Source: an uncultured Bdellovibrionales bacterium (GTDB taxonomy: Bacteria; Patescibacteriota; Minisyncoccia; Moranbacterales; UBA1568). From it: DNA of 64,000 bases. Positions 708 to 60,919 of the stretch are shown here, in pieces. The notes beneath the pieces are model-generated. The model was not told the DNA's origin. It made no database searches and saw only the letters and a list, made by a program, of their open reading frames with translations. The stretch is taken from NCBI GenBank assembly GCA_964530135.1, contig CAZGXN010000003.1, positions 42,942 through 106,941 of the forward strand. Direction: 5' to 3'. Positions within the stretch are counted from its first letter, which is position 1; every line of letters begins with the position of its first letter. Made by a program: the position numbers and the translations under genes.

Positions 708-2096
708 CTACCATTCGGCATGGATATGGTCTGCTCGAGAATCATCGCAGCTGACATATACCGTAACACGGTTGACAGTGATATCACAAAGGACATTTGT
801 CGCCCCCACCCCCGCCCCTCTGAGTGCTGATTGGACGAGTGGCCACTGAGCCTTCGGCGCATCTGGCACGATATCGACAGCCCGTCCTTGATAGTGGGCG
901 CTATTTGGGGCATGGCTACCGCCAGTAAAGCTCGTAACCATAAAAGGATAGGTCGCCGCTACAGAGAGCAGACCACTGAGCATATTCGCACTCAGTCCCG
1001 TTGTCTGGGTGCACAGGCCAGTGCCAGGGCAGCCGTTTTGGCAGCGGGTAACTGGCTGATTAGTGGCTGCCTGGGACATTGAGAGTGTTGGGCTGATAGC
1101 TCCAGCGGTACCACTACAACTTCCGCTGGACGAAAGTCTGATGCCACTGCCACTCAAGCGTATCTGCTGAGCCAACTGAGCTGGTGTTGCCCATGTTCCG
1201 GTCACACTTCCGGTCGATGTCCCAGTTCCAGTGGTCGTTCCAGCGGCGGGGGCAGGGACGGTGGCGATGCTGACGGTTGGCAGTGAGAGATTGACGAAAT
1301 CAGGGTTGATCATGTAGAGGAAGAGCCAGGCCACGAGCGCGAGAATGAGGCCGAGGATCGCGTCAAAGATGATTGTCTTGGCGCTTTCCATCCGTGAGGT
1401 GTTGCCAGCCGAAGTCAGGTACATGAAGCCGCCGATCGTCAGCATAAAGACAACGGCGATGCCAATGGCCCAAAAAGCAAAGCGATAAATATCCTGGAGA
1501 TAGGTGTTGAAATTTCCAACGGTATTATCCGAACCCGGGATTTGTTCCAGGAGCTGATAGTTTAGGTAGCCGGGACTGGTAACGGTGATTAATGAAAGGG
1601 AAGTGTCACCCGCAGAACCGGTAGGTACACAGCAGCCATCAGCATTTGTCAGGAGTGTCGTTCGGCAGAGACCAATAAAAGATTCGGTTGAATCACTACA
1701 GCCGTTAGACCAAGGGACGGCACGGGTTCTACAGACACCCCCACTTCCTCCGCTGGCGACGGAACCTTCACAGCTACTCTCGGGTATCGAACGGCTCACG
1801 ATGGGGCCAGTGGCCGTGCTCGTAATCGGTACACAACAACCCTGTGTACCGGTGTTGTAGGTATCGCCACAGACACCGACAAAGCGCTCGGTCGCATCAT
1901 TGCAACCATCGAGCTGCATAATGAGCGGTCCGCGATCACGGCAAGTCCCACCCCAACCACCGGACGTCGGTGAATTGGTACAAGCACTGCTTGATATGAC
2001 ACTGTATGTTCCACTCGGCAGTGTTCCAGCACTGACCCCCGCTGGCAGGCCCGAGAGGAAGGCGGCAACAGCAAACAACGAAAAAATTTTTTTCAT
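708..2096 (-). CDS. Secreted, membrane-associated protein. It has a signal peptide, two roughly 50-aa Cys-rich repeats, a two-helix hydrophobic hairpin with VirB2/TrbC-pilin-like topology, a Thr/Gly-rich linker, and a C-terminal peptidase M15-like zinc hydrolase domain.
   Basis: The track ORF is 462 aa. The N-terminus is MKKIFSLFAVAAFLSGLPAGVSA. The repeats are C..GG.CR....GC.D.TE.F.G.C......GCCVP, seen twice. The hairpin is FAFWAIGIAVVFMLTIGGFMYL...IIFDAILGLILALVAWLFLYMI. The C-terminus has TGGSHAPNSAHYQGRAVDI and DHIHAEW, which match the M15 S.H..G.A.D and D..H.H zinc-ligand motifs. Confidence 0.6.
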   Translation of the reverse strand: MKKIFSLFAVAAFLSGLPAGVSAGTLPSGTYSVISSSACTNSPTSGGWGGTCRDRGPLIMQLDGCNDATERFVGVCGDTYNTGTQGCCVPITSTATGPIVSRSIPESSCEGSVASGGSGGVCRTRAVPWSNGCSDSTESFIGLCRTTLLTNADGCCVPTGSAGDTSLSLITVTSPGYLNYQLLEQIPGSDNTVGNFNTYLQDIYRFAFWAIGIAVVFMLTIGGFMYLTSAGNTSRMESAKTIIFDAILGLILALVAWLFLYMINPDFVNLSLPTVSIATVPAPAAGTTTGTGTSTGSVTGTWATPAQLAQQIRLSGSGIRLSSSGSCSGTAGAISPTLSMSQAATNQPVTRCQNGCPGTGLCTQTTGLSANMLSGLLSVAATYPFMVTSFTGGSHAPNSAHYQGRAVDIVPDAPKAQWPLVQSALRGAGVGATNVLCDITVNRVTVYVSCDDSRADHIHAEW

Positions 2097-3337: not shown

Positions 3338-5950
3338 CTAGCCACTACAGCTGACGCAGCCATCATTGACTTCGGCTGAGAGACTCCGGACATAGTAGAC
3401 GGTCTTGATGCCTTCTTCCCAGGCCTTCATGTAGTAGCTGTAGAGTTGGGCGGGGCTGACGCGCGACGGATCAATCATCCACTCAAAGGAAACGGACTGG
3501 TCAATCCAGGGATAGATAACAGCCATCATATCGATGACATCGCTCATATTCATGTTGATGTACTCTTTGTAGTACCAGAAGTTCTCCTTTGAGAGCTTGG
3601 GGGCGACTCGAAGCGTTGGAGCAGAGAGATTGGTTTCGACAAAGAATTTTTTGTAGATCGGGAGGAGTGCGGCAGTGGTACCGACGACACCTGCGGTTGA
3701 AGTGTTGGGTGCCGGAGCCGTATGATAGGCGAAACGGACACCAAAGTCCTGCATATCGGCAAAGAGTTGTTTCCATTCGGCCGCGAAGGGAGTGTTCTTT
3801 TCAAACCATTCACTGGAACGCCCGAGGAGCCGTCCTTGGGAATATTCACTCCCGGGGTAGAGCTCGTAGGTACCACGCTCTTTGGCTAGGTCGATAGAGG
3901 CCCGATATGTGTGGTAGGTGTAGCGTTCAAAGAGTCGGTCTACTTCTTTGCGCGCTTCCTCGGTGTCATAGGCGAGCTGGTGGGTGGCCAAGTATTCGGC
4001 CAGTCCGAGATAGCCGAGACCGACACTGCGGTAACGCAGAGAAGTTCGCTTTGCTTCCTGAATGGGGTAATAGTTGAGAGTGATGACATTGTCGAGGACA
4101 CGCATCACAATCGGAAAGACTTCGGCGATGACCGCGGGTTCGAATACAGTCGCGATGTTGATAGAGGCCAGGTTGCAAACAACGAGGTCGCCAGGCTCAT
4201 AACGAATGACAATTTTTCCATCTTCAATTACTTCCTCGATGAATTTGGTATCCGAAGTGTTTTGGCAAATCTCAGTACAAAGCTGTGTCGAATAGATATT
4301 TCCCGCATGTTTATTGGGATTGAGACGATTTACCGTATCACGAAAGAAAACATACGGCATACCTGTTTCAACCGTTGATTTGAGAAATTTCTTGAAAATC
4401 TCCTTGGCTTTTACGGTTTTTCGCATTTCTATTCGAGTATCTTGTTCGAGAGTGAGATAAAATTCCTCGAATGCTTTGTCGAAAGAGTCCTGAAGTCGTT
4501 TCCCATAGAGCTTCTCGATTTCGTGTGGATCAAACAGAGTGATGTCAGCGTCGTCTTTTAAGCGCTGCATGAAAAGGTCGGGGATAGAGACAGCCGGAAA
4601 GATGTCAAACGCTTTGGATCGGATATCGCCAGTCTCTGTCTGGAGATCGAGAAAGTCATAGATATCGAGATGCCAGATGTCGAGTGTGACGGAAATGGCT
4701 CCAAGTCGTGAGCCGAGCTGGTTGACGGCAACAGCGGTATCATTGATGACTTTGACCCAAGGATTCACTCCGCCAGACATACCTTTGACGCCGCGGATCG
4801 AGCTCCCCCGCGAACGGATATTGCCGAGGTATACACCAACGCCGCCGCCAAACTTGGAAATCTGAGCCATGTTCTCGATGGCATGATAGATGGCGCGCAA
4901 GTCATCATTGACATTAATTTTGAAGCAGCTCGATAGCTGATTGTGATTGGTGCGCGCATTGAGAAGGGTCGGCGTCGGGAGTGAGATGCGCTGTTCGGAA
5001 CAGTGTTTATAGATCTGGAGAGCAAAAGCCAATCGATGTTCAGGCTTTTCTGGAATCGCGAGAAATAATGCGACTGACATGTACATTTCTTGCGGCAGTT
5101 CCTTGATAATCTTGTTGGGATTGAGGAGGTAGCGTTTGATGAAGGAGACGACCGTTGTGTATTCGTAGCTGGTGTCGGTATCTCGTGAGAGGTGTCGTCC
5201 GGCTTCGAGGATATCTTCAGCGGAATAGTATTGATAGAAATCTTTGTAGTACAGTCCACGCTCGATATAATCATCAAAGAGTTTTTTGTAGGCTTCAGCC
5301 GAATAGATATCTTTTTGTTCCAAACCGCGGTTTTTGATCGCCTTTTTGTAGAGGTCGCCCAAAAGGATGCGGGCGGCGATATTTTGCCAAAAAATATTTT
5401 CTACTGTAACGAGATCAATGCAGGTTTTGACGAGGAGCTTGCTTAAGTCCGAGGTTTTGATTTCATCAACAATATTTTTTTTGAAGGCTTCGATGAGGTC
5501 TTCAAAAGTGCAGAGCGTTTCGTAGCCGCTGGCAGCTCGGTCGAACACTGCTTTGATTTTCTGGATACTAAACAGCTCCTTCGATCCATCCGCCTTGGTA
5601 ACCTTCATCGAGTGATGCTCGAACTGTTCGACCAATTTCTCTTTGCGCTCATCGCGTTTTTCGTTCTGTTTCTCTCGGTAGAGGATATAGGCTTTGGCGA
5701 TTTCATACTTCCCCTCCTTCATCAGGTGTTTTTCGACGAGATCTTGGATGGTTTCGACAGATGGAATATGAGTTTCGCTGCTGCCACAAGACAGAATCAA
5801 ATCTTCGATGACCGCATCAGTCATCTTGGGGATAAATTCCTTTTCAGTTTCTCCCGTGGCATCGCACGCGAGCGTGATGGCAGTCTCGATACGGGAGCGA
5901 TCAAAGGCAACCACCTCACCGTCCCGTCGTTTGATCTGATTCAGAGTCAT
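3338..5950 (-). CDS. nrdA: Ribonucleotide reductase class Ia alpha (large) subunit with an N-terminal ATP-cone.
   Basis: 870 aa. The ATP-cone is IKRRDGEVVAFDRSRIETAI. The catalytic core contains CNLASINI. The plus-strand ORFs inside this span are low-complexity shadows. Confidence 0.9.
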   Translation of the reverse strand: MTLNQIKRRDGEVVAFDRSRIETAITLACDATGETEKEFIPKMTDAVIEDLILSCGSSETHIPSVETIQDLVEKHLMKEGKYEIAKAYILYREKQNEKRDERKEKLVEQFEHHSMKVTKADGSKELFSIQKIKAVFDRAASGYETLCTFEDLIEAFKKNIVDEIKTSDLSKLLVKTCIDLVTVENIFWQNIAARILLGDLYKKAIKNRGLEQKDIYSAEAYKKLFDDYIERGLYYKDFYQYYSAEDILEAGRHLSRDTDTSYEYTTVVSFIKRYLLNPNKIIKELPQEMYMSVALFLAIPEKPEHRLAFALQIYKHCSEQRISLPTPTLLNARTNHNQLSSCFKINVNDDLRAIYHAIENMAQISKFGGGVGVYLGNIRSRGSSIRGVKGMSGGVNPWVKVINDTAVAVNQLGSRLGAISVTLDIWHLDIYDFLDLQTETGDIRSKAFDIFPAVSIPDLFMQRLKDDADITLFDPHEIEKLYGKRLQDSFDKAFEEFYLTLEQDTRIEMRKTVKAKEIFKKFLKSTVETGMPYVFFRDTVNRLNPNKHAGNIYSTQLCTEICQNTSDTKFIEEVIEDGKIVIRYEPGDLVVCNLASINIATVFEPAVIAEVFPIVMRVLDNVITLNYYPIQEAKRTSLRYRSVGLGYLGLAEYLATHQLAYDTEEARKEVDRLFERYTYHTYRASIDLAKERGTYELYPGSEYSQGRLLGRSSEWFEKNTPFAAEWKQLFADMQDFGVRFAYHTAPAPNTSTAGVVGTTAALLPIYKKFFVETNLSAPTLRVAPKLSKENFWYYKEYINMNMSDVIDMMAVIYPWIDQSVSFEWMIDPSRVSPAQLYSYYMKAWEEGIKTVYYVRSLSAEVNDGCVSCSG

Positions 5951-7536: not shown

Positions 7537-8547
7537 GTGGTCGAGCCAAGAGTCAATCAGAACAGTCTTATGTCAGAAGAAAAAAACTCTATTTTTGTAA
7601 AGGAGCGGCACAATGGCTGGCGTCTGGATCGTTTTTTACTCGATGCTTGTCGGCCCCTTACGCGTCCAGATGTCCAAACCCTCATTGAGTCAGGTGCGGT
7701 TGCGATTGATGGCAAGGTGATGGTGCGTTCTGGGCTTCGAGTAAAACCAGGGATGACAGTCCATGTGAGAGGCGTCGCTCGGGGGCGTAAGCCAGTGGTG
7801 GAAAAGACAGAGATGCCTCATCCCGTAGTTGTCGCTGAAACTGAGACTTTTCTTGTGCTTTCCAAACCGGCGGGTATTGCTATGCATCCAGCTGGTCATT
7901 CGCAACAATTGACGATTTCTGATTGGATATCCACGACTTATCCACAGATCGTGGGAATTGGTGATGATATAAAACGCCCGGGCATGGTGCACCGTTTGGA
8001 TAAAGACACCTCGGGTCTCATCCTTGTTGCTAAAACGCAGAAGTCGTTTTTGGCTCTAAAGAAGCTTTTTCAAGAGAGAAAGATTGAAAAAACCTATGTG
8101 GCATTGGTCTATGGAAATATCCCTGACCCAAGTGGTCGTATGAATGCACCAATTGGTCGGGTGAAGGGTGAGAAAAAACGGGCGATTCCCGCTGGAAAGC
8201 GTATATTCGCTGGATTACTGCGTGAAGCTGTAACAGAATACATGTTACACACACGCTATACAGGCTATGATTACCTATCTGTTAAGCCAAAAACTGGCAG
8301 AACCCATCAAATCCGAGTCCATTTGTCGGCACTGGGATACCCGATAGTCGGCGATCGGCTGTATCGCTTCAAAGAACACCGCCGTGATCCCCTCAAGCCC
8401 CCCTTTCAACTTCTCCACGCCGCCAATCTTCGTTTTCAGCTAGGAAAAAAGAAGTATTCCTATGCTGCCCCGTTACCCCGTTATTTTTCCGATACTTTGA
8501 AGATGCTTGACGCCGAGGCGGGAAGAGGCTATGATTGGAGCGCTTGA
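7537..8547 (+). CDS. rluD: RluA-family 23S rRNA pseudouridine synthase with an N-terminal S4 domain (RluD-like).
   Basis: S4-like region WRLDRFLLDACRPLTRPDVQTLIESGAVAIDGKV. Catalytic motif HRLDKDTSGLILVAKT. 336 aa. Confidence 0.8.
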   Translation: MVEPRVNQNSLMSEEKNSIFVKERHNGWRLDRFLLDACRPLTRPDVQTLIESGAVAIDGKVMVRSGLRVKPGMTVHVRGVARGRKPVVEKTEMPHPVVVAETETFLVLSKPAGIAMHPAGHSQQLTISDWISTTYPQIVGIGDDIKRPGMVHRLDKDTSGLILVAKTQKSFLALKKLFQERKIEKTYVALVYGNIPDPSGRMNAPIGRVKGEKKRAIPAGKRIFAGLLREAVTEYMLHTRYTGYDYLSVKPKTGRTHQIRVHLSALGYPIVGDRLYRFKEHRRDPLKPPFQLLHAANLRFQLGKKKYSYAAPLPRYFSDTLKMLDAEAGRGYDWSA

Positions 8548-8661
8548 GTAGCCTGCCTGATACGCTTCATGCGAGTCATGTGGGTGGGGCCTTTCTCTGA
8601 AATGGGGTCCCCTTTTTATTACTATAGTAATCTTCCGTCCATTCGGCAGAGTCACACTCCT

Positions 8662-9126
8662 ATGAATCAAAAACTTGTTGCCTTCAATCAGAATCTCCGA
8701 ACAGCGCGTACAGATCTCCCTCAGCTCCAAGCTGGCGATGTCGTGAAAGTGCGCCGAAAAATCAAGGAGGGAGAGAAAATTCGAACCCAGATGTTTCAGG
8801 GTATGGTCATCGCTCTCAAGGGCGGCCAGAGCTCTTCTCAGATGGTAACAGTTCGCAAGGTCTCTTCAGGGATTGGTGTTGAGATTATTTTCCCTCTCCT
8901 CTCCTCTCAGGTGGAGTCAATCGAGCTCGTAAAACGAACCAAGGCTCGGCGTGGTAAACTATACTTTGTCCGTACGAAGTCAGCCAAAGTTATTGGTAAA
9001 AAGCTTAAGGAGGTCCCATTTGAGATCGGGAAAGCGGGTAAGGAAGTAAAAGATGTTGTGAAAGAAGTGAGAGCAGCCGCTCAAGCGAGTGCTGAAGAGG
9101 TGAAGGTTGAAGCGAAGTCAGAGTAG
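8662..9126 (+). CDS. rplS: Ribosomal protein L19 with a Lys/Glu-rich C-terminal extension. The track ORF starts at 8569, but the likely true ATG is at 8662.
   Basis: MNQKLVAFNQNLRTARTDLPQLQAGDVVKVRRKIKEGEKIRTQMFQGMVIALKGG...IELVKRTKARRGKLYF is the canonical L19 fold. A roughly 60-aa K/E/A-rich tail follows. Confidence 0.85.
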   Translation: MNQKLVAFNQNLRTARTDLPQLQAGDVVKVRRKIKEGEKIRTQMFQGMVIALKGGQSSSQMVTVRKVSSGIGVEIIFPLLSSQVESIELVKRTKARRGKLYFVRTKSAKVIGKKLKEVPFEIGKAGKEVKDVVKEVRAAAQASAEEVKVEAKSE

Positions 9127-9244
9127 GGCGTGATTCTTGTGCCAAAATCCCGAGAGACTTTCATTTCTAAGCGAGGATGGACACAAGTTCAGGGAGGTTG
9201 TGAATAATGGAGATCAGTCTTTTGTAGTTTGAACAAAATTAGGG

Positions 9245-9328
9245 GCCCAGGTGGCGGAATTGGTATACGCGCTAGCTTGAGGTGCTAGTTCCCGCAAGGG
9301 ATTGGAGGTTCGAGTCCTCTCTTGGGCA
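9245..9328 (+). tRNA. tRNA-Leu (anticodon GAG), type II with a long variable arm.
   Basis: Acceptor stem GCCCAGG/CTTGGGC. Anticodon arm CTAGC-TTGAGGT-GCTAG. Variable arm TCCCGCAAGGGAT. T-loop TTCGAGT. Confidence 0.8.
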
Positions 9329-9400
9329 CAAAGGAATGCAGCTGGTACATGATTGCCAGCTTTCTTTTTTGTCAGAGTCTCAGTACCATAGGGAAAGCCA

Positions 9401-9474
9401 GGGCAGTTAGCTCAGTTGGTTAGAGCACCTCGTTTACACCGAGGGGGTCAGAGGTTCGAGTCCTCTACTGCCCA
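9401..9474 (+). tRNA. tRNA-Val (anticodon TAC).
   Basis: Acceptor stem GGGCAGT/ACTGCCC. Anticodon arm CCTCG-TTTACAC-CGAGG. T-arm AGAGG-TTCGAGT-CCTCT. Confidence 0.85.
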
Positions 9475-9624
9475 CAGTGAATGTATTCACTATAGAGCAG
9501 GCCAACTGCTTGGCCTGCGTGAGGACGAGAAAGCCAGAGCGATGTCCGAGTTTTCTTTTCAGAGAAAGGCGAAGACCGCGAGGCGGGGTCGAGAGATTTT
9601 CCCGTCAGGGAAAATACTCGTGAC

Positions 9625-9644
9625 CGAGTCCTCTACTGCCCACA
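9625..9644 (+). repeat. 20-bp direct repeat of the tRNA-Val 3' end (CGAGTCCTCTACTGCCCACA), 168 bp downstream of the tRNA copy at 9457-9476. This looks like an att-site-like remnant.
   Basis: The 20-mer is identical at 9457-9476 and 9625-9644. The segment between them has hairpins GTGAAT-GT-ATTCAC, GCAGGCCAA-CTGC-TTGGCCTGC and TTTTCCC-GTCA-GGGAAAA. Confidence 0.6.
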
Positions 9645-9807
9645 CGAAAAAAAGCGTTTCAAAGAGTTGCTTTTTTCGGTAGTTTCGGGATAATGGGAGA
9701 TGTTTCGCTGGAGTCTTTCCGCGCTCAGGCTTCGGATGGACAGCATGTATAGAAACATCAGAAAAAAGAAGAATATTGTTGGGCCCTACGAAGTTTTAAC
9801 GAAGCAG

Positions 9808-9879
9808 GCCGGGGTAGCTCAGTGGTAGAGCGAAGGACTGAAAATCCTTGCGTCGGCAGTTCAATTCTGCCCCCCGGCA
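9808..9879 (+). tRNA. tRNA-Phe (anticodon GAA).
   Basis: Acceptor stem GCCGGGG/CCCCGGC. Anticodon arm AAGGA-CTGAAAA-TCCTT. T-arm GGCAG-TTCAATT-CTGCC. Confidence 0.85.
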
Positions 9880-9981
9880 CACACCAAAACACATCTCAAT
9901 AAAGATGAGATGGAAAAAGTAGAGGTGGTGTGCGTGTGCCCCAGCTGAGTTCCTGTGGTATAAAAATGATGGAGAGAGATC

Positions 9982-10054
9982 GGGTCCGTAGCTCAGCGGT
10001 TAGAGCAGGCGACTCATAATCGCTTGGTCGATGGTTCGATTCCATCCGGACCCA
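9982..10054 (+). tRNA. tRNA-Met (anticodon CAT). Elongator-type, or possibly a tRNA-Ile2 lysidine substrate. It is not initiator-like.
   Basis: Acceptor stem GGGTCCG/CGGACCC. Anticodon arm GGCGA-CTCATAA-TCGCT, with no GGG/CCC anticodon stem. T-arm GATGG-TTCGATT-CCATC. Confidence 0.8.
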
Positions 10055-10076
10055 CAGGCCAGGTAAAATCAGATCC

Positions 10077-10148
10077 GCGGGTATCGTATAGCGGCTATTA
10101 TGTGACCTTGCCAAGGTCAAGATACGGGTTCGACTCCCGTTACCCGCT
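10077..10148 (+). tRNA. tRNA-Gly (anticodon GCC).
   Basis: Acceptor stem GCGGGTA/TACCCGC. Anticodon arm TGACC-TTGCCAA-GGTCA. T-arm ACGGG-TTCGACT-CCCGT. Confidence 0.8.
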
Positions 10149-10517
10149 CAGCTAAAGAAAAAGGATTGGTCTTGCACTGATCTTTTTTTCTTTTGTTTGG
10201 ATTGGGAACGGGAGGCGAACGGGAAAGGGGTCGGGAAAACGGGAGTTTTCCTGTAAGCGGAGAGCAGCGAGTTTACGAAGCGTTGAGAACCGAGGGGTTC
10301 TTAAAGAGCGAAGCGAGTGAGATTCTCCCGTTAACTGCTCCAATAAAAATGAGGCTCATTAGAGTCTTATTTTTTATTACGTCTAAAGTCGTCGAATTAA
10401 TGGTGGACAAGGCCATTGTGAACTGATATGTTTTTTTTTGTACCTTAACAACCCCGAAAGGAACTCTATCGGAGAAAATCCATCTAATTTTGAGTAATAC
10501 TTCTTTGTAAACTCGGA

Positions 10518-11846
10518 TTGGAGATTGAAATGAGAAAGCGTTTGATTTCTTTTGCACTGTTCCTGTCTTTCATTCAATCAGCCTTCGCTTTTGACTGGAA
10601 TTCGTTCACGGCTCCCCCAAGAAATATTCCGTTCACCGTAGGAACTGTGACTTACACATCATTTGTGCAGGTCAGGCATCCTTGGTATGCACTCAACTAT
10701 ATTGTCTATTACCCGGATGGAATAAGCGATGCCCTGAAGCCAGTTGCGGTCGACTATAACCAAGGATATCCCTACCAACACATCTAGTTCCTGCTCAACC
10801 CAACTTCTCAAAGCCAGGCTTATGACAGTGCAGACTACAATCCGAATGTGATTGCTTACTACTGCTCCGGAGTTTCGGCCTGTGAGAATAACAACTGGGG
10901 TGATTCGATAACGCCGACGCAAATCTGGTATCGACAATATACCTGGTTTGACTGGAATTACGCCGGGCCGACTGGTTATAACCTCCAGAATGATCTGGTG
11001 CGAGCAGTTGGCATCGATGTCAAGGTGAACTTTGGCTATGCCTGGGGTGGGCAATTCGGCCTGTCCACGCTTTCAGCGAATGATGTGGTGGTGACAGGCG
11101 CTGCTGCTCCGTCATACCTGAGCTTTCCGCTTGCGGGAGAGACTGCTTACACGGCAGGGGTTTCCTCCGTGATGGATCACTCGATGACGGCTCTATATGC
11201 GGGCGATACCAACAATACGGTCACTGCCTTCAATGGCGAAGCCGGAACTGTTGGTCCGTATGGAAGCAGTACTTGCTACCGAAAGACAGACAGCTCTGTT
11301 TTTCTTGTGGGGACCATAAATTACACGGGTGCTTTTAGTGGCGGAGGTGATACCTATCTCTGCTACAACGGTCACCCGGGTTACGATTACCCCAAGGTGC
11401 AAGGCACGGCAATCCTCGCTCCTGCCGGGGGAACGCTGTGCGTAGCCACTGCAACTCCTACTTCCAAGCCAACACCTTCGGCCGTGTGGAGAAATACCAG
11501 TCAGTGCCCGTTGTCTGTGGCGCCCGGTACCTCCACGGTTAACTGGAGTAGCCACCATGTCTTCTACATCCTCCATGGCTCAATGCTGATGAATGGATCC
11601 ACGGATGAGTACATGACCGTATTCCTCCACAGCAACAACCTGGAATCAACGGTCCTGGCCGGAATCTATGACGATGGCTACAAAGTTGTCACAAGGTTGC
11701 AGGAGATCGCCGCCGTCGGCGATATCGGTGCATCCGGTGCGTACCATATACATCTTGAGGTGTATAAGAAGGTGAGTGGCACCTGGAACCGTGTCGACCC
11801 ATATGGCGATGGTACGAGCAACTTGCTTTGGCCGAAGCCCTACTGA
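10518..11846 (+). pseudogene. Secreted M23-family metallopeptidase (LytM/lysostaphin-like) interrupted by a single in-frame TAG at 10785-10787. It is either a pseudogene or a sequencing error.
   Basis: ORF 10518..10787 has a signal peptide (MRKRLISFALFLSFIQSAFAFDW). ORF 10848..11846 is in the same frame and carries the M23 motifs NGHPGYDYP and HIHLEV. The 20 codons between the two are open. TAG serves as the terminator for pnp, thrS, comM and the yabE-like gene in this window. Confidence 0.6.
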
Positions 11847-11866
11847 AATCTCGTCGGAAACAATTT

Positions 11867-11905
11867 AAAACCCCTTCAAACTTGGAGGGGTCTTTTCTTT
11901 TTTAA
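11867..11905. terminator. Bidirectional rho-independent terminator between the M23 gene (plus) and the 11909..12601 gene (minus).
   Basis: AAAA-CCCCTTCAA-ACT-TTGGAGGGG-TCTTTTCTTTTTT. A 9-bp stem is flanked by an A-run and a T-run. Confidence 0.55.
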
Positions 11906-11908
11906 AAC

Positions 11909-12601
11909 TTATGGAAGAAACTTGAATGTTGAGAGAAACTTTGCTGCCAAGTCTTCGGTTACATCATCATGAATACTCACATGGTATTGTATATTTTCAT
12001 GTTGAAAAATCCCATCTCTTCTCTTGTTCATCCAAACTACTTTTTCACCACTAACAATGGATTCATTTAATTCTTCCCTATCAGGATTGGCAAATCCTAG
12101 ATATGGCTTTTCGGGAGAAAGTGTAATCCAGGTATTTTCAAGCTCTCCTTGTTCTTTAGGGATAGCCTCAATCCAAATACCACTCGACTTCCCACCACTT
12201 ATAGCCTCTATACTTGGAGCAAACATAACTTGATTGATACGCCCTCCAGCTAACAACTCCTTTTTAACATTGTTACAGTCATTCACGACTTGAAATCCTC
12301 GTATATCATCCCCTACAATCATTATCCATTCATCTGGATACTTGACCTGATATCCCCCAGAAATATTTTTACACATTTTTTTCCAATTCGCTGCCGGCTC
12401 AGTGACGACTAGTGGTACTATTTCCGGCTTCTGGATAGGGGATTGTGTCGTGGTCGGTTGTTGTTCTTGCATCACCCTATCTCGTTCAGTCTTTTGTCTC
12501 GCTTTCTCATCAAAATACCGTGCCATTAGAAGCATCCCTCCAAAGAGCATGACGAGACCTAGTCCGATTATCAACACCCCTCTTTGTTTACTGTTTTGCA
12601 T
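11909..12601 (-). CDS. Hypothetical protein with an N-terminal membrane anchor.
   Basis: 230 aa. A transmembrane segment (VLIIGLGLVMLFGGMLLMA) is followed by a Q/P/T-rich linker and a globular domain. No family was recognised. Confidence 0.55.
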   Translation of the reverse strand: MQNSKQRGVLIIGLGLVMLFGGMLLMARYFDEKARQKTERDRVMQEQQPTTTQSPIQKPEIVPLVVTEPAANWKKMCKNISGGYQVKYPDEWIMIVGDDIRGFQVVNDCNNVKKELLAGGRINQVMFAPSIEAISGGKSSGIWIEAIPKEQGELENTWITLSPEKPYLGFANPDREELNESIVSGEKVVWMNKRRDGIFQHENIQYHVSIHDDVTEDLAAKFLSTFKFLP

Positions 12602-22367: not shown

Positions 22368-22439
22368 AGTGCCCCCACCAGGAATCGAACCCAGATCTCT
22401 CCCTTAGGACGGGATAGCTCTATCCATTGAGCTACAGGG
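22368..22439 (-). tRNA. Probable tRNA-Arg (anticodon CCT), with several G-U pairs or mismatches in its stems.
   Basis: The reverse complement reads GCCCCTG-TA-GCTC-AATGGATA-GAGC-T-ATCCC-GTCCTAA-GGGAG-...CTGGG-TTCGATT-CCTGG-TGGGGGC-A. The anticodon loop has T33 and A37 flanking CCT. Confidence 0.5.
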
Positions 22440-22685
22440 GCGATTGGTTACTGTAGAGGAAAACCATCACTCTGGCAAGACATTGTACCGACGCCTGTAT
22501 CCGTATTGTAACAGAGGATATCTGTGGATAACTGGAGGATAAGTCGTAAAAACTCATCCAATAGGTACCTAAATGGCCCATATAAACAAAATGGAGTGTC
22601 GAGGCTATTCGAGTACCATAAAATCACAACAAGGCTCTACGGTGATATAGTCGTAGAAAAATAAGCAAAGGATCCCTATGAAGTG

Positions 22686-22758
22686 TGGACCATACCGGAT
22701 TCGAACCGGTCACCCCTTCCATGCCATGGAAGTGCTCTACCAAATGAGCTAATGGCCC
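22686..22758 (-). tRNA. tRNA-Ala (anticodon GGC) with the G3:U70 identity pair.
   Basis: The reverse complement reads GGGCCAT TAGCTCATTTGGTAGAGCA CTTCC-ATGGCAT-GGAAG ...ACCGG-TTCGAAT-CCGGT ATGGTCC A. Confidence 0.8.
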
Positions 22759-26906: not shown

Positions 26907-27037
26907 TTGGTAGAAAGGTGTGAAGATTTTCTTTTCTCGCCACACAACTTGTTGTGTGTTTGAGTGATTGTTTGTACTGTAGTTGTTTTGCTCCAGAGGC
27001 CAAGGATCATCTCTGTCGGACCGTCTGAAAATGAGAG

Positions 27038-27111
27038 TGGGCTTGCCCAGATTCGAACTGGGGACCTCTACAATGTCAATGTAGCGCTCTAACCAACTGA
27101 GCTACAAGCCC
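27038..27111 (-). tRNA. tRNA-Val (anticodon GAC).
   Basis: The reverse complement reads GGGCTTG TA GCTC AGTTGGTTA GAGC G CTACA-TTGACAT-TGTAG AGGTC CCCAG-TTCGAAT-CTGGG CAAGCCC A. Confidence 0.85.
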
Positions 27112-51693: not shown

Positions 51694-52653
51694 CTATTTC
51701 TTCTTCCGCTTGCCGTGAAAGGACTGATGAACTTCTTTCAGGCGTTCATTGGTAACATGGGTATAGATCTGTGTCGTGGTGATAGAGGCATGACCGAGCA
51801 TCGCCTGGACGGATCGGATATCTGCACCATTCATGAGGAGGTCAGTGGCAAAACTGTGCCGGAGCGTATGGGGATGGACATCTTTTACAATGCCGGCTTT
51901 TTTCGCATAGTGTTTCACGAGTCGAGCGATCGTTCGGGGAGTCAGTCGGAGGGTTTCGCGCGCAGCATTCCTTTTGTTGACCAAGCCTCGCTTGGGGTGG
52001 GCAACGAATAGAGCGGGGTCGATATCGGATCGGTGCTCGAGGTAGTGTGCGATGGCCGTTTTAGCGCTTTTGGAGAGAAACACGATGCGCAGTTTTGAAC
52101 CCTTGCCCCGGACGCTAAATTCATCCTTGGCGAGATTCACCTGATCGCGATTGAGGCCTGTGAGCTCTGAGACGCGGAGACCAGCTGAAAAGAGAAGCTC
52201 GAGCAGTGCTCGGTCGCGCCGACTTCGGAGAGTGTCTCCGGTCGGAGCAGCGAGGAGTCGTTCAATTTCATCAGACTCAAGGAATTCAACCTGGCGCTCA
52301 GGTATTCGGCCAATTTCAATCTTTTCAGCGGGCAGGGTTTCGATATCGTGTTTTGCGAGATACTTGAGAAAAGTCCGAAGAACGATAATATGATGGGCCT
52401 GCGTGCTCTTTTTGAGTGTGCTACCAGGCTTGGTCTCACGCCGATTGAGGGCGAGTCGGTACTGGCGGATCTGCTCAGCGGTGATATCGCTGGGGTGGTG
52501 GATATCGCCCCATGTAAAGAAGGCCTGTAGTGTTCGTTGATAGCTATCAATAGTACGATGGGAGCGATTCATCTCGATTTCGAGGTGGTCGAAAAACGCC
52601 TGGGCGAGTCGTTCAATTTCAGTTTTTTGTTTGGAAGGTGAGTGGTCAGACAT
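51694..52653 (-). CDS. xerD: Tyrosine recombinase of the XerC/XerD family.
   Basis: 319 aa. An N-terminal SAM-like domain. Catalytic residues in GLRVSEL, HTLRHSFAT and LGHASITTTQIYTHV. Confidence 0.85.
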   Translation of the reverse strand: MSDHSPSKQKTEIERLAQAFFDHLEIEMNRSHRTIDSYQRTLQAFFTWGDIHHPSDITAEQIRQYRLALNRRETKPGSTLKKSTQAHHIIVLRTFLKYLAKHDIETLPAEKIEIGRIPERQVEFLESDEIERLLAAPTGDTLRSRRDRALLELLFSAGLRVSELTGLNRDQVNLAKDEFSVRGKGSKLRIVFLSKSAKTAIAHYLEHRSDIDPALFVAHPKRGLVNKRNAARETLRLTPRTIARLVKHYAKKAGIVKDVHPHTLRHSFATDLLMNGADIRSVQAMLGHASITTTQIYTHVTNERLKEVHQSFHGKRKKK

Positions 52654-58008: not shown

Positions 58009-58683
58009 ATGGAATTTCTCTCTAAGAAAAAATCTGGCAGTTTGAGTACACAGCGATATGTCGATGTCGAAGAGCTGCGTGATGGCGTTCTCGTTCTCAA
58101 AACCGGAGCGCTGCGGGCGGTACTCCTTGTCTCATCGATTAATTTTGATCTGAAATCGAGCGAAGAACAGGATGCGATTATTTCTCAGTATCAGAATTTC
58201 CTCAATTCACTGGATTTTCCCATTCAAATTGTCGTGCAGTCTCGCCGGTTCAATATCGATCCGTATATCGAACTCCTCCGTGGGAAAGAGGCACAGCAGG
58301 CCAATGAGCTCCTTCGATTCCAGATGAAAGAGTACCAAAGCTTTATCAGGAACCTGACGGATGTTTCGAATATTATGTCGAAGTATTTTTATGTTGTTGT
58401 ACCATTTTCACCAGTTGAAAATGTCGAGACGGGATTTTTCGGAAAAATGGGAGACATTTTCAATCAGCGGAAAACCGTCGGCCTCAAAAATGAATTGTTT
58501 GATACCTACCGAACACAGATCATGCAGCGCGTCGAACATATTGTCGCGGGTCTTTCTCCGATGGGAATCCGCGCAACAGCCCTGGGCACCGAAGAATTGA
58601 TCGAGCTCCTCTACAATAGTTATAATCCATCACTCTTTGCATCAACGATCGTGAAAAATGTCGAGGCGATTGAGCTCCAGTAA
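58009..58683 (+). CDS. VirB4-family N-terminal domain encoded as a separate ORF (the N-terminal piece of a split VirB4).
   Basis: 224 aa. VDVEELRDGVLVLKTGALRAVLLVSSINFDLKSSEEQDAIISQYQNFLNSL resembles the N-terminus of Gram-positive VirB4 proteins (TraE/PrgJ). It ends with TAA at 58681-58683. Confidence 0.55.
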   Translation: MEFLSKKKSGSLSTQRYVDVEELRDGVLVLKTGALRAVLLVSSINFDLKSSEEQDAIISQYQNFLNSLDFPIQIVVQSRRFNIDPYIELLRGKEAQQANELLRFQMKEYQSFIRNLTDVSNIMSKYFYVVVPFSPVENVETGFFGKMGDIFNQRKTVGLKNELFDTYRTQIMQRVEHIVAGLSPMGIRATALGTEELIELLYNSYNPSLFASTIVKNVEAIELQ

Positions 58684-58687
58684 ACTT

Positions 58688-60919
58688 ATGGGACGAGAAC
58701 TGATTATTTTTGACCGGCCAATCAAGAAAGTATCCGTGGTTGATCCGATGAATATCGCGACCCCTGGTCTTGGTGAGCTTTCTGTACCGCCTCGCTCACG
58801 TGGCCAAGCGGGAGCCGCCCTGCCATCCGCGCGTGCCACAAATGCCGATGGAGTCCGGCCACCCCAGCCAGATGATACTGTGCTGCCGACCGACATCCAC
58901 TCAGAGAAAGTGGCATCAGCTCCAGCGAGTCCAGTTTCGCGTCGAGCGCCAGAGCCACGCGAGACAGTCTCAGCTCCTGATCGAGGAGGAAGGCTTGCCC
59001 CACCAGAAAAGAATCGCGCCGTCTGGGCAGAGGAGGTTGTGGCCCAGGCTTTTCCAGTTGATAATCCATCGACTATCAAGTCGGAGAAAAAGAGTTTTCT
59101 TGGGAGTCTTTTTGGAAAAAAATCCCAGACCCCAGTTTTGGATACAAATCGGGAAACAGAACAGCTCTATCAGAAGGGTCTGGCAACGATCCGTGATCTC
59201 ATTGCTCCGCCAGCGATTCGAGTGAGTCCAGCGACCATGCAGATCGGCGATGTCGTCGCTCGGACACTGTTCATCATCGCGTACCCGCGGTTTCTTTCGA
59301 CCAATTGGTTTTCTCCGATTATCAATATCGACTTTCCGATGGATACGGCGCTGTTCATTCATCCGATAGATACAGCTGAAATCCTGAAACAACTCCGTAA
59401 ATCCGCGACCCAGGTGCAATCACAGATGAATATCGAAATTGAGGAGGGGAAGATCCGCGACCCAGTACTTGAGGCGGCGCTTCAAAATATTGAAGAATTG
59501 CGTGATCGTCTCCAGCAAGGGACAGAAAAGTTCTTTCGCTTTGGTCTCTATATGACGCTCTATGGGGCAGATGAGAAAGATCTCTCCCAAAAAGTGCAGT
59601 CGATTGAAGCGATTCTTGAGGCGCAGCTCGTGTATACCAAACCCGCTGTCTTGCGAATGGATGTTGGGTTTGCGTCGACTCGACCGCTGGCCAATGATGC
59701 ACTGGATGTGGCCAATAACCTCAACACTGAGCCGCTTTCGACTACTTTCCCCTTTGTCTCTTCAGATCTCTCCTCCAATGAGGGTATCCTGTATGGCATC
59801 AACCGGCATAACAATTCGCTTATTCTGTTTGATCGGTTCAAGATGGAAAATGCCAATATGGTGGTCTTTGCAAAGTCTGGTGCGGGTAAGAGCTATACGG
59901 TAAAACTTGAAGTTTTGCGGGCGCTCATGCTCGATACAAGCGTTATTATTATTGATCCAGAAAATGAATATAAGCATCTCTGTGAGACGGTCGGTGGAGC
60001 CTTTCTGAAAATTTCTCTCAACTCGGATATTCATCTCAATCCGTTTGATATGCCGAAAGTCGGTGCGGAAGAAGAGTCAGATGGCGTTTTCCGAAACACT
60101 ATTGCCAATCTCATCGGACTTCTCCACCTCATGCTCGGGACTTTATCAGCCGAAGAAGATTCGATCTTGGACCAGGCTATCCGTGAGGCGTATGCGATTC
60201 GTGATATTCACGAAGATTCAAATTTCGGCGCATTGCTTCCGAATTCCTTTCCAACAATGTCTGATCTGCATGCAGTCCTGAAGAATATGGAGGGTGCGGA
60301 TTCGATTGCTGCTCGACTGCGACGCTATACAGAGGGTATTTTCTCGGGTTTTCTGAATGAGCAGACGAATATCGATACGGATAACCAGCTTGTTGTCTTC
60401 AATATTCGAGATCTGGAAGAGGAACTCCGTCCGATTGCGATGTATATCATCCTTCAGTACATCTGGAATGATATTCGCTCAAAGCTTCGCCAACGCATCA
60501 TCGTCGTCGATGAGGCCTGGATCATGATGCAAAATGAGGATGCAGCCTCGTTCCTATTTGGCATCGCCAAGCGCTGCCGCAAGTACTACACTGGTCTTAC
60601 GACGATCACTCAGGACATCAGCGACTTTATGTCTTCGCGCTACGGCAAGCCGATTATCACCAACTCTTCGATGCAGCTGCTCCTCCGTCAATCACCCGCA
60701 TCGATTGACTATATCACCGAGACTTTTTACTTGACGGATCATGAGAAGTTTCTTCTGCTCGAGTCGAATGTGGGGGAAGGAATTTTCTTTGCCGGGACAA
60801 AACACGCCGCTATAAAAGTCATTGCTTCATATAGTGAAGATCAGATTATCACTTCGGACCCGCGTCAGCTTCTCGAAATTGAAGAAGCGAAGCGCGACTT
60901 CGATTCCAACAACCCTTAA
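58688..60919 (+). CDS. VirB4/TrbE/CagE-family T4SS ATPase (central and C-terminal ATPase domains) with a roughly 130-aa Pro/Ala/Ser/Arg-rich low-complexity N-terminal segment. The track ORF starts at 58658; the ATG at 58688 lies 4 nt after the upstream stop.
   Basis: Walker A is FAKSGAGKSYTVK. Walker B is RIIVVDEAWIMM. The middle region QIGDVVARTLFIIAYPRFLSTNWFSPIIN is VirB4-like. The reading frame differs from that of 58009..58683. Confidence 0.8.
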   Translation: MGRELIIFDRPIKKVSVVDPMNIATPGLGELSVPPRSRGQAGAALPSARATNADGVRPPQPDDTVLPTDIHSEKVASAPASPVSRRAPEPRETVSAPDRGGRLAPPEKNRAVWAEEVVAQAFPVDNPSTIKSEKKSFLGSLFGKKSQTPVLDTNRETEQLYQKGLATIRDLIAPPAIRVSPATMQIGDVVARTLFIIAYPRFLSTNWFSPIINIDFPMDTALFIHPIDTAEILKQLRKSATQVQSQMNIEIEEGKIRDPVLEAALQNIEELRDRLQQGTEKFFRFGLYMTLYGADEKDLSQKVQSIEAILEAQLVYTKPAVLRMDVGFASTRPLANDALDVANNLNTEPLSTTFPFVSSDLSSNEGILYGINRHNNSLILFDRFKMENANMVVFAKSGAGKSYTVKLEVLRALMLDTSVIIIDPENEYKHLCETVGGAFLKISLNSDIHLNPFDMPKVGAEEESDGVFRNTIANLIGLLHLMLGTLSAEEDSILDQAIREAYAIRDIHEDSNFGALLPNSFPTMSDLHAVLKNMEGADSIAARLRRYTEGIFSGFLNEQTNIDTDNQLVVFNIRDLEEELRPIAMYIILQYIWNDIRSKLRQRIIVVDEAWIMMQNEDAASFLFGIAKRCRKYYTGLTTITQDISDFMSSRYGKPIITNSSMQLLLRQSPASIDYITETFYLTDHEKFLLLESNVGEGIFFAGTKHAAIKVIASYSEDQIITSDPRQLLEIEEAKRDFDSNNP

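Follow-up and report, generated by a model that had tools for sequence, protein, structure and literature searches.

The stretch analysed here, which we call the window, comprises 64,000 nucleotides of contig CAZGXN010000003.1 (assembly GCA_964530135.1). It carries a cluster of tRNA genes in the order Leu(GAG), Val, Phe, Met, Gly, called by ARAGORN and Rfam, with the gene for ribosomal protein L19 (8569-9126) upstream of the cluster and an RluD-like pseudouridine synthase gene before L19. The relatives of this locus are metagenome-assembled genomes of Candidatus Moranbacteria/Moraniibacteriota, part of the candidate phyla radiation (CPR), and they have L19, tRNA-Leu, Val, Phe, Met and Gly in the same order. 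Directly behind the tRNA-Val gene of the window lies a block of 168 bp (9477-9644), hereafter the element, which ends in a second copy of the 3' part of that tRNA. What is this block, and how did it come to lie behind a tRNA gene? The region is made up of the features listed below, all on the forward strand. X denotes the 3' part of the tRNA and X' a segment of about 12 nt that complements it; L-numbers designate the loci used for comparison.

9401..9474, forward strand: tRNA-Val(TAC), intact host gene and the element's target (ARAGORN; Rfam tRNA, 72.5 bits; ARAGORN/Rfam end at 9474/5)
9457..9476, forward strand: direct repeat 1 (X), part of the functional tRNA, made up of C56 of the T-loop, the T-stem 3' strand, the acceptor 3' strand, the discriminator and CA
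9477..9490, forward strand: 5' hairpin 1, GTGAAT-GT-ATTCAC, confined to the subfamily of the window, L005 and L006
9497..9518, forward strand: 5' hairpin 2, GCAGGCCAA-CTGC-TTGGCCTGC, with the CTGC loop in most family members and compensating changes in the stems
9520..9531, forward strand: X' (TGAGGACGAGAA), complementary to the tRNA T-loop/T-stem 3' strand TTCGAGTCCTC at 9 of 12 positions with tandem G·A, ending 1 nt before the core
9533..9584, forward strand: predicted core stem II, with GCC/GGC, internal loop GNA/GA, GCG/CGC, AU bulge and a variable hairpin (RNAalifold, pair counts)
9585..9586, forward strand: GG linker between stems II and III (invariant columns)
9587..9625, forward strand: predicted core stem III, with a GGUCG/UGACC base and then a long variable hairpin, TTTTCCC-GTCA-GGGAAAA (invariant base, RNAalifold)
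9625..9644, forward strand: direct repeat 2 (X), copy of the local tRNA-Val 3' part, apparently dispensable and decaying in older copies elsewhere
9667..9694, forward strand: promoter-like TTGCTT-16 nt-GATAAT of the tRNA-Phe unit, read from the sequence and conserved in the relatives' alignment; a consensus scan did not list the site

The duplicated 20-mer, CGAGTCCTCTACTGCCCACA, is present exactly twice in the window, at 9457-9476 and 9625-9644 (20/20 identity). There is no further site at three or fewer mismatches, and none of 100 dinucleotide-preserving shuffles matched it. A sequence-only reading of the same DNA had pointed out this duplication, and the identity is real. The three hairpins that it placed between the repeats are likewise all present: GTGAAT/ATTCAC at 9477-9482/9485-9490, GCAGGCCAA/TTGGCCTGC at 9497-9505/9510-9518, and TTTTCCC/GGGAAAA within 9597-9615. 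It also held that repeat 2 is not a second tRNA; neither ARAGORN nor Rfam calls a tRNA or a tmRNA there, and no tRNA is called anywhere between 9476 and 9807 (ARAGORN, Rfam tRNA model). The ground that it gave, that repeat 2 lacks a partner for a T-stem, was mistaken: in the predicted fold GTCCTC of repeat 2 (9628-9633) is paired with GAGGAC (9521-9526), and an equivalent segment is found in every family member. As a separate observation, in all five tRNA genes of the cluster (window 9245-10149) the discriminator is followed by CA and not by an encoded CCA, and the duplicated 20-mer includes this CA.

Among Candidatus Moranbacteria relatives that share the tRNA-Val gene, the 168-bp block is either present or absent. 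The site is empty in L002, L009 and L010, where ...CCCACA is directly continued by TTGCTTTTTTCGG...GATAAT, the promoter-like site of the tRNA-Phe unit, which is conserved; their tRNA-Val is identical or near-identical to that of the window, L010 differing at two anticodon-stem positions. L005, with an L19 protein that is 91% identical, is occupied by the same 148-nt interior and the same 20-nt repeat, and L006 is partly deleted, retaining only the 5' part of the block (about its first 80 nt). In L004 a homologous interior follows a different tRNA-Val allele (acceptor GCGTGCT, T-stem GGGGG/CCCTC), and the repeat there, CGAATCCCTCAGCACGCACA, copies that locus' own tRNA; L017, a close relative of L004, has an empty tRNA-Val site. 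A tRNA-Leu site is used in the same fashion, occupied in L011 and L017 and empty in the window, L005 and L009. The sequence-only reading had proposed this very comparison, and the pattern of occupied and empty sites bears out its view of a tiny insertion at the tRNA-Val 3' end. By alignment, the block is a true insertion with a duplicated target.

We scanned metagenomes with the invariant 18-mer CCGCGAGGCGGGGTCGAG as query. Among the matches listed there are at least about 20 true homologues, in contigs of 34-62% GC and nearly all directly after a tRNA; most of the matches listed are chance hits in high-GC contigs. A covariance model (R1) built from 23 copies recognises 34 copies in the metagenomic and genomic contigs examined, including further ones in Moranbacteria loci. 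A same-strand tRNA lies 26-237 nt upstream of 29 of these 34, with 14 isoacceptors represented; each of the remaining five stands at a contig end, is a second unit or lacks a tRNA that can be recognised. Element size across the family is about 130-170 nt, or about 150 bases. The window holds one copy, which is full-length (87 bits, model positions 1-104); this contradicts the other half of the earlier proposal, that of a remnant att site or a mostly deleted element. The feature noticed first is thus real, non-random and an insertion at a tRNA 3' end, and the element is intact, not a scar. Elsewhere we find a decayed copy (L004 3669-3760), truncated ones (L006 and the second unit of L022) and tandem ones (L103, L139 and L022), so that members of the family behave like selfish repeats. 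At L151 1232-1300 a third copy stands behind tRNA-Arg(TCG); an insertion of about 30 nt, CGCCTTCATTAAAATTACGGCGAGATAAAT, interrupts its downstream repeat, which then resumes and is followed by the start of another unit.

No family of Rfam 15 matches the element at permissive thresholds (window 8000-12000 at E<=10; seven other loci at E<=1), no true copies were found in viral, phage and plasmid collections, and nothing relevant was found in the literature on tRNA-trailer motifs, on bacterial elements that duplicate a tRNA target, or on the core sequence itself. The family is apparently undescribed, widespread and non-coding.

Every copy shows the same order: the tRNA with its 3' part X, a variable 5' region with a hairpin, X', one spacer base, the core, and X again. 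Hairpin 1 of the window copy holds a AGTGAAUG-like motif that also occurs near the 5' end of other copies. In stem II the base is invariant and double changes are seen in 9 of 11 distal pairs; its variable hairpin can shrink to a triloop, as in L022. The base of stem III includes an invariant G·U, and the last C of the stem doubles as the start of repeat 2. Of the 29 pairs that RNAalifold predicts, 18 have undergone double compensatory changes. When the helix between X' and X is included, 89% of cells are paired, compared with 35-46% for slid partners, double changes occur in 26 of 37 pairs, and the covariation score is 0.42 against at most 0.13; 0 of 500 shuffles attain these figures. G·U pairs abound, A·C pairs are rare, and the fold thus belongs to the tRNA-bearing strand, as expected of an RNA. 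The compensatory changes support a fold on this one strand, and the core is conserved across contigs that range from 34 to 62% GC. Hence the hairpins of the window are not chance palindromes but belong to a conserved RNA-type fold with a two-helix core (stems II and III), read from the tRNA strand.

The junctions of the element are equally regular. At the right end every copy has GTGAC followed by C. X' is the reverse complement of the target across this junction, covering two bases upstream and then the C with about nine more (some 10 downstream), and the geometry of the window copy holds in 22 of 26 copies. In copies of the window's type (type A), the upstream bases are T54 and T55 and the junction C is T-loop base C56. 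Copies of type B (L050, L051, L052, L083, L088, L102, L136 and L153) have their junction C at the acceptor-stem end, at C72; here X' pairs with the acceptor end, the discriminator and the trailer in one long hairpin, and the repeat measures 3-7 nt only. The left junction of both types falls 1-9 nt past the tRNA discriminator, and repeat length varies as a result: the window, L005, L004 and L093 have repeats of 20 nt, L011 one of 26 nt and L017 one of 27 nt. In the latter two the element follows tRNA-Leu(GAG), and the repeat reaches 6-7 nt into a lineage-specific trailer, so that each locus has its own trailer duplicated (AAGGAA in L011, GAGCGAA in L017). tRNA-Leu and tRNA-Val have the X'-paired sequence CGAGTCCTCT in common, which would fit the use of both Val and Leu sites by one subfamily; the cores of L004 (Val) and L017 (Leu) are 94% identical. 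One exception to the rule of local copies was found at L139, where the acceptor strand of the downstream repeats, CTCGGGCC, differs from that of the resident tRNA-Cys, CCCTGGCC.

Could X' simply be a degraded copy of the T-loop? Asymmetric T-loops show that it is a complement: AATCGAA stands opposite TTCGATT in L103, and ATTTGAA opposite TTCAAAT in L151. The mean match of X' over the copies is 10.0 of 12 positions on the tRNA side, a value somewhat inflated since it comes from a best-match search, and 6.5 of 12 on the repeat-2 side. In the older copies L115, L134, L141, L147 and L157, repeat 2 has acquired substitutions or indels, and the tRNA and X' are still matched. These comparisons indicate that the interaction maintained is that of X' with the tRNA 3' region, the tRNA using repeat 1 and repeat 2 being dispensable. 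X' also changes with the site, in that cores 88-91% identical carry X' segments that differ at 8-10 of 12 positions.

The element is placed where it would be transcribed together with its tRNA. tRNA-Leu has its own terminator (9340-9361), and no terminator was found between tRNA-Val and the element. The promoter-like site at 9667..9694, after repeat 2, probably marks the downstream limit of the tRNA-Val/element transcription unit. In L011 the element lies between tRNA-Leu and that tRNA's terminator hairpin. From this arrangement we infer co-transcription, with the element as the 3' trailer of the tRNA. Beyond the promoter-like TTGCTT/GATAAT, a conserved leader of about 105 nt precedes tRNA-Phe in the window (9700-9807) and in L011 (4017-4116); it is absent from L005, L009 and L002.

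Taken together, these findings lead us to favour, with moderate confidence, the view that 9477-9644 is an intact copy of a family of RNA-structured, non-autonomous mobile elements that home to tRNA 3' ends by a copying mechanism. A 3' junction set precisely by the guide-like X', a 5' junction that tracks the tRNA 3' end, and a duplication of variable length argue for copying with an RNA participant; the 3' end of a tRNA is a landmark in RNA, not in DNA. Conservative site-specific recombination is argued against by the local origin of both repeats, by identity that extends into unique trailer sequence, by variable repeat length and by the lack of an integrase gene near any copy. Beyond this anatomy, we infer every step of the following route. 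The element RNA would be transcribed as a tRNA 3' trailer and would recognise a tRNA 3' region with X' as its guide. Synthesis would be primed at the guide-defined C, fixing the 3' junction and leaving the donor's own X tail uncopied, and would proceed to the 5' end of the element RNA. The copy would next be linked to a pre-tRNA or its gene, at the 3' end or close to it, giving the 5' junction, and repair would duplicate the local sequence between the two junctions. The enzyme would be supplied in trans, with spread most plausibly mediated by RNA. Such a route may be likened to target-primed reverse transcription with a template jump, or to hybrid tRNA-plasmid cDNAs such as those described for Neurospora retroplasmids.

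Several points weigh against this view. Precise deletion between the repeats can mimic empty sites, and gene conversion between short repeats could keep both identical without repeated insertion. Neither a reverse transcriptase nor another partner enzyme was found in the 64-kb window and the short loci. Retroposition usually yields 5'-truncated copies, and none was seen among the copies. The tRNA-side match of X' is inflated to the degree mentioned above. Simple copying of a donor RNA, moreover, would not yield an X' re-matched to the new tRNA. Such re-matching may come about by quasipalindrome template switching, in which the long but imperfect hairpin of X and X' undergoes templated correction.

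How do other explanations fare? The continued complementarity of X' to the tRNA suggests an RNA-level function in cis, and together with the strong conservation of the core over the whole range of GC contents, the tandem arrays in L103, L139 and L022 and an architecture as in the tyrT/tyrV rtT units of E. coli, it would suit a resident functional small RNA of tRNA operons, either a processed by-product of the tRNA precursor or a regulator derived from it. In such a model X' pairs with the 3' part of the tRNA and directs processing, for example by RNase III or RNase P. Transposition plays no part in it; local duplication, unequal crossing-over and gene conversion would produce the repeats and arrays. 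We consider a resident RNA unlikely, because local duplication cannot shift a unit between tRNAs, and yet near-identical cores stand at different tRNAs in related genomes and 14 different tRNAs are used, each time with a locally matched repeat and X'. Presence and absence among close relatives with identical tRNAs, and the existence of decayed and truncated copies, speak against it as well. One may also think of a chance repeat, or of a relic without present function such as a decayed second tRNA gene or the att scar of a prophage; tRNA 3' ends are alike, and the neighbouring tRNA-Leu matches the 20-mer at 16 of 20 positions. The shuffles gave no second copy, full-length homologues with covariation are found in dozens of unrelated contigs, and X' is a reverse complement of the T-loop and not a degraded direct copy (as in L103), so that this explanation carries hardly any weight and is excluded by shuffles, family copies and covariation.

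The sequence-only reading had seen in the locus the classic footprint of site-specific integration, and direct repeats of a tRNA 3' end that start in the T-loop are indeed the textbook signature of such events. In this model the block is a miniature integrative element, an att cassette excised as a circle and inserted through conservative recombination by a tyrosine or serine integrase acting in trans. The repeats of L139, with CTCGGGCC against CCCTGGCC of tRNA-Cys, have the appearance of an element-borne or displaced att half, and displaced tRNA-Val 3' fragments lie at the same locus in L001 and L007. An integrase would, however, be expected to leave a foreign repeat. Instead both repeats are local at the Val sites, the Leu sites and the second tRNA-Val allele, even for near-identical elements at different tRNAs; they run 6-7 nt into the lineage-specific trailers of L011 and L017, and their length varies from 3 to 27 nt. 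No integrase gene lies in or near any copy, the sole recombinase of the window being of the Xer type and 42 kb away, and a circle as small as about 170 bp would recombine poorly. Nor does the model give any role to the strand-specific RNA-type fold, the invariant G·U or the guide-like X', and we regard it as rather improbable. Similarly improbable, in our estimate, is RNA-guided DNA transposition. In the manner of an orphan IS110 bridge RNA or a TnpB/IscB omega RNA, the element would supply no more than the guide or scaffold for a recombinase or transposase whose gene lies elsewhere. Here a conserved scaffold with a target-complementary segment spanning the insertion point would be accounted for, as would a target choice that follows X', given the X'-paired sequence shared by the Val and Leu sites; an RNA with both X' and X could pair with both strands of the tRNA gene. 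Yet no gene for a DEDD recombinase, TnpB or IscB adjoins any copy, the Rfam omega RNA motif models give no match, known bridge RNAs are split guides in two internal loops without a long duplication, and variable repeat length is unexpected of fixed recombinase geometry.

By architecture the nearest known analogue is the rtT repeat of E. coli tyrT, and the element may be placed with that little-understood kind, outside the RtT family itself. The 178-bp rtT units of tyrT/tyrV (rttR; Rfam RtT; tpr open reading frame) resemble the element in being structured units of about 170-210 nt on the same strand after a tRNA. They end in the last 19 nt of tRNA-Tyr, starting in the T-loop, and they contain GGGGAAGG, the complement of the T-stem/acceptor 3' strand, followed by RTGAGAA (the GAGAA motif) and about 90 structured nt. 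Like the element they form tandem arrays, and they carry an incidental arginine-rich open reading frame (ORF), tpr in E. coli. The succession of tRNA, T-stem/acceptor complement, structured body and tRNA 3' terminus that defines an rtT unit is found in the element too. The two differ in that the E. coli repeat includes the encoded CCA, and in that there is no detectable sequence homology; Rfam RtT gives no match (window 8000-12000 at E<=10, seven other loci at E<=1). The covariance model of the element aligns each of the three rtT units of L160 (E. coli K-12 1286723-1287507) over its full length, with the same helix order, at non-significant scores of 3-5.5 bits (E 0.29-1.3 in 2.2 kb). Occurrence differs too: rtT is known from a single tRNA in enterobacteria, and the element family occupies many tRNAs in uncultivated bacteria. 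What has been described of rtT function, reportedly by Bösl and Kersten (1991), accounts for neither rtT nor the element. rtT is also mentioned once in bioRxiv 10.1101/2024.07.17.603846.

Other known systems share some of these traits. Like the element, genomic islands and prophages of tyrosine integrases lie between direct repeats that begin in the T-loop and comprise the 3' part of a tRNA, and they leave the tRNA intact; in the window such repeats flank the insert with 20/20 identity. The element differs from them in having neither integrase nor cargo (none in the 148-nt interior or beside it in the 23 loci inspected), in its local and variable repeats, and in its strand-specific fold and internal target complement. 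A single element-derived repeat with a fixed extent of identity is not seen, L139 being an exception that would fit one. Miniature inverted-repeat transposable elements (MITEs) are likewise small, non-coding and multi-copy and duplicate their target. No terminal inverted repeats were found in the element, however; its duplication is long and variable and not short and fixed, its target is strictly the tRNA 3' end, and what is conserved is the RNA fold, not the termini. Group II introns, through their exon- and intron-binding sites (EBS/IBS), and IS110 bridge RNAs share with the element an internal segment that complements the target across the insertion point and tracks the target at a new site. 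Group II introns exceed 400 nt, against about 150 nt here, and the pairing of the element lies mostly downstream of the junction and a duplication is produced; unlike these mobile ribozymes and bridge RNAs, the element has no adjacent recombinase or intron-encoded protein, and in the flanks examined it does not stand beside a recombinase or nuclease gene within one element, as bridge and omega RNAs do.

Short interspersed nuclear elements (SINEs) and the site-specific R2 are non-autonomous and site-specific retroelements, respectively, that use target-primed reverse transcription. The Mauriceville and Varkud retroplasmid variants of Neurospora are reported to form hybrid tRNA-plasmid cDNAs (Akins, 1986; Chiang, 1994). 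With such retroelements and retroplasmids the element has in common that it is short and non-coding, with a structured 3' domain, a precise 3' junction, a variable duplication, an enzyme that would act in trans and a joint to a tRNA 3' end. The precise junction (GTGAC then C) combined with a duplication of 3-27 nt is what target-primed reverse transcription of a SINE-like element would produce. The element departs from them in lacking a poly(A) or simple tail and in showing no 5'-truncated copies; its target-specific internal guide is without counterpart among them, and no reverse transcriptase domain was found in the 64-kb window. We know of no class of non-autonomous target-primed retroelements of the SINE or R2 kind in bacteria. 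Tentatively, the element might nevertheless be a bacterial counterpart of SINEs or a self-mobile RNA: a trailer RNA of about 150 nt whose internal guide reads tRNA 3' ends and which is copied back into tRNA genes. It would then represent a new class of RNA-guided mobile element, common in CPR bacteria, with E. coli rtT/tpr as its enterobacterial relatives or fossils.

Were this so, the tRNA operons of many uncultivated bacteria would harbour a compact element, structured as RNA, that uses base pairing to choose a target and then duplicates that target. To our knowledge, no catalogued bacterial mobile element chooses and duplicates its target in this way. The family would also allow, for the first time, a comparative approach to the rtT repeats of E. 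coli tyrT, which have stood unexplained since the 1970s. Its scaffold is small and looks programmable (a 12-nt guide and a core of about 90 nt), and a partner enzyme, should one come to light, could serve as a tool. In genome annotation, many 'partial tRNA' repeats and odd spacers of CPR tRNA clusters would be explained by the family and would then not be prophage att sites.

Some further candidates were considered and set aside. A 16-mer common to four viral contigs (L030, L031, L036 and L038) looked intron-like; the number of its matches fits chance and no intron model matches the element, and a group I intron was rejected. The Rfam models for hammerhead, twister, pistol, hatchet, hairpin and HDV-like ribozymes, Intron_gpI and group-II domains give no match that overlaps any copy, and comparison by eye of the junction sequences with the hammerhead and hairpin cores does not fit either. 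The GGUCG/UGACC base of stem III resembles the Ro-binding helix of Y RNA (GGUCCGA/UUGACC), an idea dropped when no model matched. An ORF of 48 codons at 9477-9623 terminates in the conserved GTGAC and resembles E. coli Tpr in its richness in arginine. Its frame is broken in L005, the closest relative, and in many other copies; no conserved ORF was found in the element, either in the 148-nt interior or across copies. An all-vs-all comparison of the ORFs of 23 loci revealed no enzyme gene shared near the copies: the families in common are ClpB-like, IF-2, L19 and RluD-like only, together with spurious ORFs across the element.

Other irregularities were noted at the tRNA cluster in relatives. At L001 3954-3990 and L007 3800-3900, the tRNA-Val is of another allele, with acceptor GGACGAT, and behind it lies a 3' piece of a window-type tRNA-Val that starts in the anticodon stem; the displaced fragment is decayed in L007, and both loci look like the scar of a tRNA gene replacement. 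L003 3426-3489 holds a second tRNA-Val-like fragment right after tRNA-Val, with a perfect 20-nt palindrome, CCTGCCTGCCGGCAGGCAGG, in its anticodon arm, and the contig ends there. In L019 about 2.1 kb (3599-5728) are inserted between tRNA-Leu and tRNA-Val. In L020, at about 4047-4370, the anticodon loop of tRNA-Phe is split by an insertion of about 270 nt that resembles a group I intron, and the gene is missed by ARAGORN.

The remaining ORFs of the window are housekeeping genes, apart from the Xer-type recombinase and genes of type IV secretion-like character. The former is a tyrosine recombinase (51694-52653, reverse strand); the latter include a VirB4/TraC-like ATPase (58658-60919, forward strand) and a type IV secretion pilin-domain protein (708-2096, reverse strand). 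All three lie far from the element, and no link to it was seen. Between tRNA-Arg/tRNA-Ala (22369-22758) and tRNA-Val(GAC) (27037-27111), the segment 22000-26000 has a GC content of 0.36-0.39, compared with about 0.48; it has genes for a TSP3-repeat and a Wzy_C-like protein and is possibly a surface-polysaccharide island that was acquired.

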